The translations under genes and the position numbers were made by a program. 64,000 bases of DNA from a bacterium (GTDB lineage Bacteria; UBP14; UBA6098; JAFGQG01): assembly GCA_016935765.1 (NCBI GenBank), contig JAFGQG010000082.1:6716-70715 (forward strand). Reading direction: 5' to 3'. Every line of letters begins with the position of its first letter. Position 1 is the stretch's first letter. This document shows, piece by piece, positions 6,472-13,894 of this stretch. The notes under the pieces were generated by a model. That model saw only the letters and a list, made by a program, of their open reading frames with translations, did not search any database and had not been told where the DNA came from.

Positions 6472-9400
6472 TTAATATTTTATTATATAATTCAAAACTC
6501 TGTATGGTTGAAGGTTGTTATGAGCACTATCTCCGCCCCGATTACCAATTGTATGAGAATGATCTCCATCAGTATCTGTCTTCATCCAGTCAACAAAATT
6601 ATCGTTGTACCAATCATCGCTGCCGTCTTCGTTTGAAGTAAGAAAACCTTGAGTCAAACCGGTTGAATGAGCCTTTACTGCAGCGCCATCAAAAGGGGAA
6701 TCGATATAGTGCCAATGGTCGCCCTCTGTTGAACAAGAATGATTATGGGAAGGCATTTCATTCACGGTTAGTGTATGTGTTTTTGCTCCACTGGCGTCAT
6801 TTAATGCATCGAAATCAGCATCGGAGCCATCCAGACCTACAACAACTCTTCCTTTTAGGTTGGGAACCCTGAAGTTGGTGCCGCTTCCACCGTAAGTATA
6901 AGAGATAACTGCGAAAAGGTCAGCGTAAGTAGCAGTACCATACAAGGTGCCATCACACATCAGCCAGCCTGTCGGGGCTGTACTTCCAGCATAGGGGATT
7001 ACAGCTCCTACGGGCATGACATATCCGGTCTGGTCTTTAATCCTTCCCTTTACGTCGAGCTTGCATGAAGGATTTTCAGTTCCGATTCCCACGTTTCCAT
7101 CGAAGTAATTTTTCCCACCTTCAAAATAACCCGCGTAACCGTTGGTTCCCAAACCATAAATTGCTTTGCTGCTGGTAGCAGTTCCATAACCAGCCACTCC
7201 GAAATTTTTCCCCCTTCCGTAAACTCCGTAACCGACTCCACCTGTTCCCGGAACTTCTCCATCGCCGTATATTCCATAAACAATTAGCCCCCCGGAAGCT
7301 TCACCCTTAACGCCGTAGAATTCACTGCCACTCGATACTCCGCCAGATGTGCCTGCATAGGAGTAGGTTCCGTAACCGTCTGAAGCTGCGGCGCCTTCAC
7401 GATATATATACGCGCCATACCAAACACCTGCGGTGGAATTGTCTTCATATACCCTAATCACGTAGGGTGAGTCCACATCGAAGATTTTAATATCCGCGAC
7501 ACCGTCAGTAGAGGGCGACATGTAACCAGTATAATCTATCCAGTTATTTACGATAGCACCAATGTTGGTTCCTGGCCTCCACTCCGTGCCGTCCCATTCT
7601 AGAACATCACCAGCATCAGGAGTTTCATCATTTACATCTCCGATGGTATTGAGGTCAAAAGTACTTAACATATAACTGAAACTTATGGGTTTCCATGTAG
7701 AACCATCGAACCGGAAAATCTGGTGGTTCTCTGCACCGGTTGTGTTAACATCTGCCAGATCATTGATACTGTTATCCGCCAGGTTATCCCGGTTGACCGG
7801 AATTACGACATCCTGCTCTATAGCATGTTCGATAATCCTCAATGTATTTGCTCGGAAACCAAGACTATCAGTCGGTTCCCATATAAGAAAATCGATAAGT
7901 TCGTTCTCGTAATCGTCATCCAGGTCATAAGCAACGTGCCAAACCGTATCGTCCCCATCCCACTTGAGAACCTGTCCATGTACAATATTATCATAATCGA
8001 CATCGAAAAGGTCCTTTATGGTAGTAAAGGTATCAAGGTAAGCGCCGAGTGTATCCCAATTCACTGCAAGGGGATCACCAGCAGTTCCGTCGCCATTAAT
8101 TGAAAGGTCACTTTGTACTATTTGTGTTCCCCAATTGTCACCAAGACCGCCGGGTCCTATCGAGACCGGTCGCCACTGGCTTGCGGCATCCACCCATGTA
8201 AGCACCTGCGCGTCAGCGACACCAGCATCATTTACATCCAGAAGATCATTTATTTTAATTGTTGTATTAATGTAATCTTTTACAGAGTTCCAGTCTATAG
8301 CAAGTGGTTGGGCAGGGGTACCATCTCCAACAAGGGAATTATCACGTCGCACCACCTGTGTTCCCCAGTTATCCGCGCCGGTTGTGCCTCCGACATCCAT
8401 TGCCGGTCGCCATTCACCAGCTACCGAGAACCATTTAATGACCTGGCCATCAATCAATCCTGTTGTATTAACGTCATCTAATCCATCTAAAGTCTGTGGC
8501 ACAAAGCCTTCGATGTCCTGCCAGTCGCAATTGCCTAATCCATCCGCAATCAGCACCTGGTTTGAATCCCCTAATCCACTCCCGAAATCGAGACCGCTGT
8601 TTATCAGTAAATTTCCCTCAGATTTGAAAGCATATCCCCCGGGAGGACCGACTACGTGCAAAGGATAAGCCGGGTCGGTGGTCATAATTCCTACATTCCC
8701 GCTATGATAAATTTCCCCAGTCAGATCGCTTCCCGTATTGTAAGCCCAGTCATTGTCCTCAAAATCATCACCATCATCGAGATCACCGGGAACACCAGTG
8801 ATATCGTCCCAATGTACTGCTCCTGTACTATCGGCATAGTCGATGCTGATATCGTCTGGAACCTGGGCATCAGTAGCAGTCCCGCCAATTTCATTGAAAT
8901 TATGGGCATGGAAAGTATCTGAATAAGCTCCAAGGGTATCAATATTAAGGAGTACTACATTTTCACCCTCCATCATTATTTCGTCAGGAAGATTTGCGAT
9001 ATCCCCCCACGTGACTGCGCCTGTAGAATCTGCAAACAAAATTGTAATATTATTAGGGATCTGGGCATCGGTAGCGGTTCCTGAAATAGTTGAGAAATTG
9101 TGTGAATGCCCGATCAAAGAATAGTGCCCAAGTGTATCAGAACCGACATAACCGGCATCGTTAACGAGAAGAGAAACATTGTCTCCGGCAGTGATGACAT
9201 CGGGAGGCACTCCCGCAGAATCAGCATAAATAGCCCTTATTGCGAACACCTCGGAGATCAACCTCTGTCTTGGGATCAAAGCATCGCCATTTACCGCTAT
9301 TTGCAGATAATACTGCGCTTCTGAAAAATCAAGATTTAATGCATTAACACTACCCAGGACAACATCGAATAAACCGTTAGTAATTGGAACATTCCAATGG

Positions 9401-12800: not shown

Positions 12801-13894
12801 TGACCATCTACTACGCCGGATGTATCGACATCCCTCATATCATCTAATTCAAGAATGCCGGCAGTAGCCAGGTTTTGCCAATCGCAATTGCCTGCCCCAT
12901 CAGCCATTAGCACCTGCCCCGCGGTACCAAAGCCCGATCCGAAATCGATACCGCTGGAAACAAGAATGTTCCCTTCAGAATGGAAAGCGTATCCACCCGG
13001 AGCGCCTACTACATGAAGTGGATACTCTGGTGATGTGGTTCCAATCCCAACCTGGCCAGTGTGGTAAATCGCCCCCGTTAAACCGCTTCCTGTATCGTAA
13101 ACCCAGTCATTGTCACCTGATGCATCATTCCCATCCGCAAAGTCTGCTGGCATATTTCTGATGCTATCCCAGTCTGCAATGAAAGTGTCGAGGTCGTCAC
13201 CATCAGCGATATCACCAGGAATGTCCCGCAGGGTTCCCCAGCGCGCGATGAAAGTGTCTATGTCGTCGCCGTCATCGATGTCCGGAGGGATATTTATAAT
13301 ATCGCCCCATTGGACAGCTCCTGCCAGGGCTGCGAAATCGATAGTTATGTCATTTGGGATCTGTCCGTCTGTGGCTGCACCGGTTAAATCCGAAAAATCA
13401 TGTGTGTGTGCTGTATCAGAATAAGCTTGAAGGGTATCCCAGTCAGCTTCAGTTATGTAGCCGGCATCATTTGTTAAGAGGGAAATACTATCACCCTCCA
13501 TTATCGCGTCATCAATGTGCGCGACTGAGTCGGCATATATAGCACGAATAGCGTAGAACTCAGTGAGTAGCTGCTGCCTTGGGATCAAGGCGTCTCCATT
13601 TACCGCGACCTGGAGATAGTATGGTCCATCCGCAAGATCAAGATTCATCGGAGATACACTGCCCAGCACTACATCAAACAGCCCATTAGTAACCTGGACA
13701 TTCCAATGGGTTTCATTCCATATACCTGGTCCGGCAGTAGGTGTTCTGTATATCGCGAACTGAATGTTCCGTGTTCCATTGATTGCAACCCCTGCTGTAT
13801 TGGTGAGTTTACCCTGATAAGGTATAAGCCTCGGAACAGCTCCTGTATTAACAACAATGAACAAAATAAAAACCAATATCAAGATTTTCCTCAT
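9803..13894 (-). CDS. Secreted tail-fibre-like protein F2. It has the conserved N-terminal domain, 2.5 acidic 23-aa repeats, a shaft, a Gly/Tyr junction, a long unique distal region and an acidic tail.
   Basis: 1363-aa ORF with signal peptide MRKILILVFILFIVVNTGA followed by VPRLIPYQGKLTNTAGVAINGT. The RBS is AAAGGAA. Shaft motifs (GADNWGTQVV, GPGGLGDNWGTQII, L.DV....GQVL.W....W.P) are shared with F1 and F3-F5. The C-terminal 550 aa does not align with other paralogs and ends EREGEEGNN. Confidence 0.9.
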   Translation of the reverse strand: MRKILILVFILFIVVNTGAVPRLIPYQGKLTNTAGVAINGTRNIQFAIYRTPTAGPGIWNETHWNVQVTNGLFDVVLGSVSPMNLDLADGPYYLQVAVNGDALIPRQQLLTEFYAIRAIYADSVAHIDDAIMEGDSISLLTNDAGYITEADWDTLQAYSDTAHTHDFSDLTGAATDGQIPNDITIDFAALAGAVQWGDIINIPPDIDDGDDIDTFIARWGTLRDIPGDIADGDDLDTFIADWDSIRNMPADFADGNDASGDNDWVYDTGSGLTGAIYHTGQVGIGTTSPEYPLHVVGAPGGYAFHSEGNILVSSGIDFGSGFGTAGQVLMADGAGNCDWQNLATAGILELDDMRDVDTSGVVDGQVLKWVAIANEWRPSNDVGGPAGADNWGTQVVLHDASLLGDGTAAQNLGINWNTLKTHINNNINLTDLHNVDDAGVADGEVLAWIAAANEWRPMVIGPGGLGDNWGTQIIMSDASINGDGTAGDILGVNWDTLDAYRDTFMVLDDLKDVIAVPAAEDQVLGWNDDSGRWEPRTDNDADMDNELIDSLIWEPVDDALLKKNTLRVVEHSIEKDVIIPINRDSLADNIFDDIGDVDLTGLDSCNLVHWDGTKWVPQSTQEIFQSHVIADIGNVNSDAPVTGDVLEWNGTSWGPGTNIGSIVNTWQDHAGYLAPSVTDAVNFRVWDVDSPYAASIIENSATTGVWYGMYIDRRGAASSDGYGLCAYGGTAGGVVAGSEFCGIKGEASGGSVVYGVYGDGEVPGTGGTGYGVYGRGKDYGVYGYGTAAGSWGGYFNGKGYFSGRLGVGTNAPSAKLDVTDNQTSGPTAFFTNTSTTGGYGGINCKNDAANLLMVGIYSTGTATYANEAFLWHYNNYAIRFGTNNTERMRLTNGGDLCIGTANVWQDFNMNGTSVFSDDIFLRDGAVSSGDTLVRIYDDSDDGRIDIYQNNAIKLRLNGNGFSFFNGGNVGIGTSTSSTDRLYINGGTDNGIYISNAGRVGIGIYNPGLAGLSIINSDAGITIDNITNRGIDIHSCGGAGVYAESQGNFGVQGFGDDTYGGVWGYTNNHHDFNKSDDFGDWSGVYGESFGYGSYDGCGVFGRANQTWESYGFGVMGHGGYAGGSFDGGHNDIENSMMRTIHGSPGTRVITAHGYGVIATGGAIGTVQYGGCFGQVVKGDLVSSYIDGDAYHKGNSIELNDTGGEQFIASYHPISQEPTVYASGYGSLTNGQARVEFDDDFITLTSDNERPVVTVTPIGTCNGLCISGVDENGFSVLELAEGTSNVEFSWIAIGKKPPKPIETQLLDREIYRNMNDAFFTKHPEYDLKFSIQNGAFNFTRDENDNPPSEPLERGGPEREGEEGNN
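13140..13315 (-). repeat. In-frame 69-72 bp (23-24 aa) acidic tandem repeat, about 2.5 copies, in F2 (boundaries approximate)
   Basis: Protein NIPPDIDDGDDIDTFIARWGTLR / DIPGDIADGDDLDTFIADWDSIR / NMPADFADGNDASGDNDW. Confidence 0.75.

Follow-up and report, generated by a model that had tools for sequence, protein, structure and literature searches.

Candidate MAT-type surface fibres with a common N-terminal domain in an uncultured bacterium

The DNA analysed here (the window) is a 64,000-nucleotide stretch of contig JAFGQG010000082.1, assembly GCA_016935765.1, from an uncultured bacterium of GTDB lineage UBP14. It encodes seven fibre-like proteins, F1-F7, each of which starts with a hydrophobic leader followed by a common 104-aa domain (VPRLIPYQGKLT…YADS; mature span VP… to YAD[STN]), hereafter the N-domain. 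Several of the fibre genes lie beside genes for 2200-aa proteins, the giants. The reading that we favor, with a probability of about 0.7, is that F1-F7 are paralogous chimeric cell-surface fibres of the mosaic adhesive trimer (MAT) kind known from Bdellovibrio, the N-domain being their constant, cell-proximal module; the homology part of this reading is stronger than the overall figure and the anchor role weaker. The window fibres are a new instance of an already described, very widespread family, and known biology accounts for most of the locus.

Seven fibre genes and their N-domain

The seven open reading frames (ORFs) are given below in window coordinates.

F1, 6472..9594, (-) strand: 1040-aa fibre with leader, N-domain at 9217-9528, shaft, and Collar + Gp10_C tip (residues 863-1034)
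F2, 9803..13894, (-) strand: 1363-aa fibre; N-domain at 13526-13837; unique after ~residue 1010, with no family match there
F3, 22210..26157, (-) strand: 1315-aa fibre; N-domain at 25789-26100; unique tip with a weak phage tail-fibre PHROG match at residues 1098-1220
F4, 26201..29380, (-) strand: 1059-aa fibre; N-domain at 29012-29323; Collar + Gp10_C tip (residues 887-1054)
F5, 37879..41805, (-) strand: 1308-aa fibre; N-domain at 41401-41712; C-terminal Peptidase_S74 intramolecular chaperone (residues 1207-1261, ~38023-38187)
F6, 43576..46482, (-) strand: 968-aa fibre; N-domain at 46099-46416; no giant adjoining
F7, 61676..64000, (+) strand: fibre cut by the window end; N-domain at 61763-62071; different, Gly-rich shaft; no giant adjoining

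F7 runs past the window end, and its full length is 1088 aa (protein P0050). For F1, an upstream TTG at 9645 would give a longer ORF (window 9594-9645, minus strand); a normal leader like those of its paralogs is obtained only from the ATG at 9594.

An earlier note on this DNA, made from the letters alone, had described a multi-paralog fibre set with a common N-domain behind the leader. Seven copies within 64 kb bear this out, and both the positions and the consensus that it gave for the N-terminal regions were correct. The alignment of the seven copies has 33 invariant columns, and identity to the F1 N-domain is 77% for F2, 70% for F3, 74% for F4 and for F5, 65% for F6, and 43% for F7. Each copy scores E ~1e-41 to 1e-51 in a profile search of 1.84 billion proteins, so the likeness among the seven is far beyond chance.

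The N-domain of F1-F7 had no Pfam match. In F1-F6, the sole N-terminal family match was to NCBIfam NF053851, Bdello_MAT_N (E 1.6e-6 to 6.9e-5, ~22-28 bits), which is a Bdellovibrio 'subfamily_domain' model for 'mosaic adhesive trimer family chimeric fiber protein' with a curated cut-off of 60 bits. The match is not produced by the leader, because the leaderless mature F2 domain still matches the model (E 7e-6, profile positions 14-76), as does a homolog that has no leader (E 4.5e-10). When the seven window copies were aligned with 43 homologs, 45 of the 50 sequences matched Bdello_MAT_N below its cut-off, the best at E 1.1e-12. Distant relatives from Saprospiraceae, Lewinellaceae, and Planctomycetota also match, those from Saprospiraceae and Lewinellaceae at 43-46 bits. 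As the scores lie under the curated cut-off, these profile matches place the window fibres as probable homologs within a wider MAT superfamily, outside the Bdellovibrio subfamily itself.

MAT fibres were described in 2024 as prey-recognition adhesins of Bdellovibrio (Caulton et al. 2024, PMC10769870). That paper describes 21 such fibres with S74 and non-S74 classes of tip, and the family is characterized by a signal peptide followed by a conserved, β-rich N-domain of ~130 aa that has no PDB homologue. The conserved N-terminus is proposed there as the 'presentation' end, with anchoring acknowledged as an open question, and relatives are noted in other bacteria, 'predatory and otherwise'. The earlier note's idea of a conserved N-terminal module as the proximal end is thus a proposal that already exists for Bdellovibrio MAT fibres.

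The structural evidence points the same way. An AlphaFold2 (AF2) model of the F2 N-domain, built from the 50-sequence alignment, is an all-β sandwich with a predicted local distance difference test (pLDDT) score >90 over residues 11-90. The model had no Foldseek match at E<=1e-3 in PDB or BFVD, and the domain had no sequence match in PDB; a fold without a PDB counterpart agrees with the description of the MAT N-domain in PMC10769870. The window fibres and Bdellovibrio MAT proteins are also alike in general build. Both are ~1000-aa proteins encoded by many paralogs per genome, in which a leader precedes a conserved β-rich N-domain (~100-130 aa) and a phage-like shaft, and both have tips in S74 (F5) and non-S74 (F1 and F4, with Collar + Gp10_C; others) versions. 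The family-level similarity by hidden Markov model (HMM) is significant, though below the curated cut-off.

Several points weigh against a MAT-type identity. The Bdello_MAT_N scores of F1-F6 are well under the curated 60 bits, the matches span mainly positions 2-80 of the 162 in the profile, and F7 has no match to this model in NCBIfam. The likeness comes via the family HMM and not via direct alignment to any Bdellovibrio sequence, and in PMC10769870 the anchor role of the N-domain is itself only a hypothesis. Unlike Bdellovibrio, the window host, which comes from sample SRR13394437, is uncultured, probably belongs to the FCB group (Zixibacteria-like, with relatives labelled Zixibacteria), and is not known as a predator, so that the biological role of its fibres may differ. 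The gene arrangement also differs: the window genes are arranged with giants and a small protein bearing a C-terminal domain (CTD) like those of the type IX secretion system (T9SS), and no mention of such an arrangement was found in the available portion of PMC10769870.

The earlier note had proposed the N-domain as a candidate docking domain. It is not specific to this locus: the seven-copy profile retrieved 45,661 protein clusters at E<=1e-3, 17,808 of them also at E<=1e-10, from 1.84 billion representative proteins, the clusters being defined at 50% identity. The N-domain lies at ~residues 20-125 in nearly all of the best 150 matches, which come from proteins of 130-2374 aa. Named relatives belong to Zixibacteria, Elusimicrobiota, Eisenbacteria, Saprospiraceae, Lewinellaceae, other Bacteroidota, and Phycisphaerales metagenome-assembled genomes (MAGs), and are usually annotated as 'tail fiber (domain-containing) protein'. 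Such proteins from Bacteroidota, Planctomycetota, and other MAGs resemble the window fibres in having a leader, an N-domain of the x-F/I-N-Y-Q… type, a shaft, and an S74 tip, and they match Bdello_MAT_N with up to 46 bits; they differ in that their N-domains are more distant and in being uncharacterised.

The profiles used set the scope of these comparisons. The narrow seven-sequence profile, which misses many more distant N-domains, located the domain at ~residue 22 in 48 of 105 proteins examined (four being the window's own fibres). A homolog search with the 104-aa profile matched only short or partial proteins and yielded little taxonomy. The 57 metagenome loci considered below, and a scan for viral copies, were obtained with the narrower seven-copy alignment and are biased to close relatives.

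Tandem N-domains, in two or three copies at ~150-aa spacing (starts at 27, 177, and 327), were seen in proteins P0044 and P0045, and also in P0051, P0054, and P0055. P0044 and P0045 have exactly three copies, 150 aa apart. Such tandems may be a single-chain mimic of an N-domain trimer.

Leaders, shafts, and tips

Each fibre leader has a basic n-region and a hydrophobic stretch, and small residues precede VP in F1-F6. The signal peptides were assessed by eye and with the -3/-1 rule alone, and the cleavage site is a prediction. The earlier note had proposed an invariant mature N-terminus. This holds for F1, F2, F3, and F5, all of which read VPRLIPYQ, and not for F4 (VPRLVNYQ), F6 (VPMLIHYQ), or F7 (VPNQAFYQ). 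Its placement of the predicted cleavage site directly before VP in every copy likewise stands only in part. For F1-F4, predicted cleavage between A and VP conforms to the -3/-1 rule; in F5 and F6, an A-A pair equally permits predicted cleavage one residue earlier; and in F7 (..MLFPV, followed by VPNQ) the position before VP has no canonical cleavage site.

The same region is recognizable across the family. In 219 homologs, the motif [VI]P..[IML][NST]YQG[KR][LIV]T starts at a median of residue 22. The residue preceding the motif is A in 79 of them, Q in 41, E in 20, and D in 14, and A occupies position -2 in 105. The mature end across the family is thus predicted to be [VI]P… or to have one additional Q, E, or D. 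Because the motif starts at this median position, close coupling of the N-domain to the predicted leader cleavage site appears to be a property of the whole family.

The earlier note had limited sharing among the fibres to ~120 aa, which is true of F7 alone. Pairwise BLAST and sliding-window identity showed that F1-F5 have a stretch of ~790 aa in common, with 50-76% identity per 60-column block, and that identity drops to background only past residue 790-810; the exception is the F1/F4 pair, which is homologous end to end. F6 has ~260 aa in common with F1-F5, and F7 has ~105-120 aa in common with the other fibres, i.e., the N-domain alone. Given the collapse of identity among F1-F5 at ~790-810, the cassette boundary is the shaft-tip junction. 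This common stretch sets the window fibres apart from Bdellovibrio MAT proteins, in that five of the seven paralogs share ~790 aa that includes the shaft.

The cassette-like distal parts in the earlier note proved to be exchangeable, phage-like tips (Collar/Gp10_C, S74, and other). Pfam identified Collar + Gp10_C in F1 and F4 and Peptidase_S74 in F5, in which the S74 chaperone has the catalytic SDxxxK motif at S1207. The tips of F2, F3, F6, and F7 differ, and have only weak phage-fibre PHROG matches and no family assignment. Every PHROG tail-fibre match in the fibres lies beyond residue 400; none falls within the N-domain.

Two further observations concern F6 and F7. Residues ~414-499 of F6 gave weak matches to hexapeptide-repeat acyltransferases (NeuD, LpxD), which suggests that this part of its shaft resembles a left-handed β-helix, unlike the shafts of F1-F5. 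The C-terminus of full-length F7 (P0050) reads '…AFIVPRMTTAQRDALTAVNGMIIYNTSTNKFNFYENSAWVTYQTIP'; none of the other six paralogs has a tip like this one, which has no family assigned.

Giant proteins and candidate anchors

Searches of F1-F7 against Pfam and NCBIfam revealed no T9SS C-terminal sorting domain (Por_Secre_tail, TIGR04183, TIGR04131) and no autotransporter, YadA anchor, or C-terminal β-barrel, and a regular expression ([LVI][ASTVI][GAS]C) found no lipobox in the first 45 residues. The earlier note had reported that the fibres have neither T9SS CTD nor lipobox nor autotransporter barrel, and these searches confirm it. Trimeric autotransporter adhesins of the YadA/UspA1 type are, like the window fibres, long, repetitive, and probably trimeric surface fibres, and F7 has a weak match to the UspA1 repeat in Pfam (20.8 bits vs a cut-off of 27). 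The window fibres differ from them in having no C-terminal β-barrel anchor and in their opposite polarity, the conserved end being N-terminal. Our literature search found no later paper that names an anchor for MAT fibres.

The giants come into consideration as anchors because the earlier note regarded them as the obvious attachment partner of the N-domain. The window has three giants, not two; the third, G0, is missing from the program-made ORF list because it runs off the left end. There are accordingly three fibre-giant modules in the window. The giants and the small protein associated with them are as follows.

G0, 2..6424, (-) strand: third giant; at least 2141 aa, its C-terminus lying beyond the window; ~47 bp downstream of F1
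G1, 15531..22154, (-) strand: 2207-aa giant with leader and bacterial TSP3 repeats; 55 bp downstream of F3
G2, 30995..37843, (-) strand: giant of 2282 aa (2273 aa from the ATG at 37816), 46% identical to G1; 35 bp downstream of F5
s1, 14683..15489, (-) strand: 268-aa secreted protein with a FlgD_ig / Por_Secre_tail (T9SS CTD-like) C-terminus, directly downstream of G1

G0, G1, and G2 are mutually 46-49% identical and have leaders and bacterial TSP3 repeats. Nothing beyond these repeats was found in Pfam searches to E<=5 or in profile searches against PDB sequences, and no anchor or CTD was recognised. An AF2 model of the C-terminal 908 aa of a giant, made with 6 sequences, had a mean pLDDT of 39. 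The C-terminus of s1 scores 35.4 bits for FlgD_ig and 25.9 bits for Por_Secre_tail, just below the cut-off of 27.

On the minus strand the order of genes is F6; F5, G2; F4, F3, G1, s1; and F2, F1, G0. A plus-strand regulator interrupts the series after F6 and a plus-strand 388-aa ORF does so after G2. The latter (window 29737-30903, between G2 and F4) has no Pfam match and breaks the co-directional array. Gaps are short within the modules, at 35 bp for F5-G2, 43 bp for F4-F3, 55 bp for F3-G1, and 41 bp for G1-s1; F2 and F1 lie further apart, with 208 bp between them when F1 starts at the ATG at 9594.

Giants are rare. Only three full-length homologs were found in 5.8 billion proteins. A scan of 185,579 species genomes gave four giant loci, of which one carries the label Candidatus Zixiibacteriota. 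The species-genome loci end just upstream of the giant, such that fibre C-termini are visible there and N-domains are out of range. Wherever a giant homolog has sequence upstream of it, that sequence holds one or two N-domain fibres or a fibre C-terminus, as in the following loci.

L005: fibre of 1468 aa, fibre of 987 aa, giant of 2213 aa, s1-type protein of 279 aa (at 16663-17502)
L007-L010 and L022: fibre of ~1465 aa, 137-aa ORF, giant of 2200 aa, s1-type protein of 243 aa (at 11641-12372 in L007)
L021, L023, and L039: fibre of ~1150 aa, small ORF, giant
L001, L002, and L006: fibre C-termini upstream of the giant

A homolog of s1 follows the giant in four locus groups, L004 (at 4623-5324) being a further example, and the L005 copy resembles s1 outside the CTD as well, with 41% identity over 237 aa. 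This suggests that the giant-s1 pair is conserved and that the organism has a T9SS. The succession of fibre(s) and giant is kept wherever giants occur, with an s1-type protein after the giant in some loci, and is a conserved, lineage-specific module; a functional link between fibre and giant in this lineage is plausible.

Some smaller features of these loci may be recorded here. In two other groups of giant loci, a conserved secreted ORF of 137-154 aa lies between fibre and giant (L007, 4564-4977; L008, 6872-7285; L021, 13462-13884); tblastn found no homolog of it in the window. The best sigma-70-like match of the region (11/12) is upstream of F2, at 14013-14040 (minus strand), and a terminator-like hairpin lies just past s1, at 14652-14635 (minus strand), with none in the fibre-giant junctions. 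Sites at 14.0-14.7 kb would fit a transcript boundary between the F4-F3-G1-s1 and F2-F1-G0 modules; this is suggestive, overall counts of promoter and terminator sites being the same as in shuffled controls.

Does the common N-domain dock the fibres onto the co-encoded 2200-aa giants, which would serve as a surface platform and may themselves be held by T9SS-anchored s1? The tight, co-directional gene order (F5, G2; F4, F3, G1, s1; F2, F1, G0) supports this possibility, as does the presence of a fibre ahead of all the giant homologs that have upstream sequence (L005, L007-L010, L021-L023, and L039; L001, L002, and L006) and of an s1 homolog after the giant in four locus groups. Relatedly, the fibre-giant junctions have no terminator-like site while one follows s1, though such counts are at chance level. 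On the other hand, the N-domain family exceeds that of the giants in size by about four orders of magnitude. The 57 metagenome loci with the closest N-domain relatives form 40 distinct groups, and a giant lies within 10 kb in only two of the 40; where at least 3 kb of downstream sequence is present, the figure is two of 16 groups. No other neighbour family recurred in more than four groups of this set. Within the window, F6 and F7 stand alone. Moreover, the N-domains that lie beside giants elsewhere (41-50% identical to F2) interleave with those not beside giants (28-52%) and form no giant-specific subclade, and the giants themselves have no recognisable anchor, CTD, or domain except the TSP3 repeats.

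With 45,661 N-domain clusters against few giants, and a giant near two of 40 groups, the giants are not a general partner or anchor of the N-domain family. That the N-domain occurs mostly without giants nearby is also the outcome that the earlier note had itself named as speaking against them as the obvious partner. Docking onto giants as the explanation of the N-domain is therefore unlikely, although it deserves first place among the alternatives. It is similarly doubtful, and somewhat more so, that fibre(s), 2200-aa TSP3-repeat giant, and s1-type protein together make up a previously undescribed surface apparatus, in which the giant and a small T9SS-anchored protein would be a platform binding MAT-type N-domains.

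A second alternative is that the N-domain is not an anchor at all, and acts instead as an export or targeting signal for an outer-membrane route or as a trimer-nucleating cap, any retention on the cell being achieved in another way. The family-wide tie between the domain and the first residues after the leader is consistent with this. A self-cleaved S74 tip cannot bear a C-terminal sorting signal, which would make an N-terminal signal logical, and the three tandem copies at 150 aa in P0044 and P0045 are compatible with packing of three N-domains in a trimer. However, neither the window nor the 57 related loci have secretion-system genes linked to fibres, and a folded β-sandwich of ~100 aa is atypical as a targeting signal. 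We regard this explanation as improbable.

The fibres do have much in common with those of phages. Phage tail fibres, tailspikes, and endosialidases (Collar/gp10_C/Peptidase_S74) have homologous tips and shaft parts and the same division into a constant proximal and a variable distal end, and the shafts and tips of the window fibres are matched by numerous PHROG families for tail fibres, collars, and S74, as well as by Pfam Collar, Gp10_C, and Peptidase_S74. The window fibres differ in having leaders, which phage fibres would not need, in the absence of a phage context, and in an N-domain that is not in the viral collections searched. All seven have hydrophobic N-terminal leaders; the 64 kb hold no phage structural, packaging, or lysis genes; the N-domain was not found in PHROGs, in BFVD, or in IMG/VR (scanned with its two most conserved peptide patterns); and the homologs are secreted bacterial proteins of many phyla with the N-domain at ~residue 22. 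It is accordingly hardly credible that the seven proteins belong to a prophage, tailocin, or other phage-derived particle as its tail fibres and attach to a baseplate by the N-domain. The earlier note's analogy with the baseplate-attachment domain of phage fibres fails on the same ground, the N-domain having no counterpart in PHROGs, IMG/VR, BFVD, or PDB.

The remainder of the window carries genes for an ArsR/DUF2087 regulator, an FMN reductase, a GNAT protein, a radical-SAM protein, an OmpA-family protein, a Ras-like GTPase, two-component systems, a lipocalin, a PAP2 protein, and a DNA alkylation repair enzyme. These are ordinary chromosomal functions, and the window is thus not a prophage; prophage identity was rejected on the basis of these flanking genes, the leaders, and an N-domain without a viral match. 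At 50790-56490 (plus strand), a co-directional cluster encodes an apolipoprotein-like helical protein, a 583-aa OmpA-family protein, and a 165-aa Ras-family small GTPase; a 243-aa ORF follows, then a PAS/HisKA_3 kinase and a LuxR-type response regulator. The cluster amounts to a bacterial Ras-like GTPase module.

Proposed mechanism and implications

Returning to MAT-type fibres as the favored reading, we infer the following course of events. Sec would export each fibre, and cleavage of the leader would probably leave a [V/I]-P… N-terminus. By homology and architecture, the 104-aa β-sandwich N-domain would then be the constant, cell-proximal module that holds or presents the fibre via a partner common to all the paralogs. 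The long phage-like shaft would trimerise, aided in F5 by an S74 chaperone that self-cleaves at S1207, as is expected from knowledge of that family, and the variable C-terminal tips may bind different ligands on other cells or particles. Local duplication and tip exchange could have expanded the array, given the abrupt divergence of F1-F5 after ~790 aa in common. The fibre genes of this lineage are in addition arranged in modules, one or more fibres preceding a 2200-aa giant; at least one of these modules continues past the giant with a small T9SS-CTD protein. The arrangement is an addition specific to the lineage and is not family-wide.

Three features go beyond the MAT description in the available portion of the published paper, namely the size of the superfamily, the conserved mature N-terminus predicted across the family, and the rare fibre-giant module, with its T9SS-CTD protein in four locus groups. 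With >45,000 clusters at 50% identity and no Pfam entry matched, the N-domain is among the larger uncharacterised secreted domains. A family of this size suggests that the fibres are a general bacterial surface-recognition device rather than a speciality of predators, and the window offers a case in which the MAT-type architecture has been expanded to seven paralogs in an uncultured bacterium from an anaerobic spring. An anchor search now has two handles: one is the [V/I]P..x.YQG motif, with its position at the predicted leader cleavage site throughout the family, and the other is the giant/T9SS-CTD module, which is rare. If the platform of giant and T9SS-anchored protein were real, it would be the first concrete candidate anchor for this fibre superfamily, at least in one clade.

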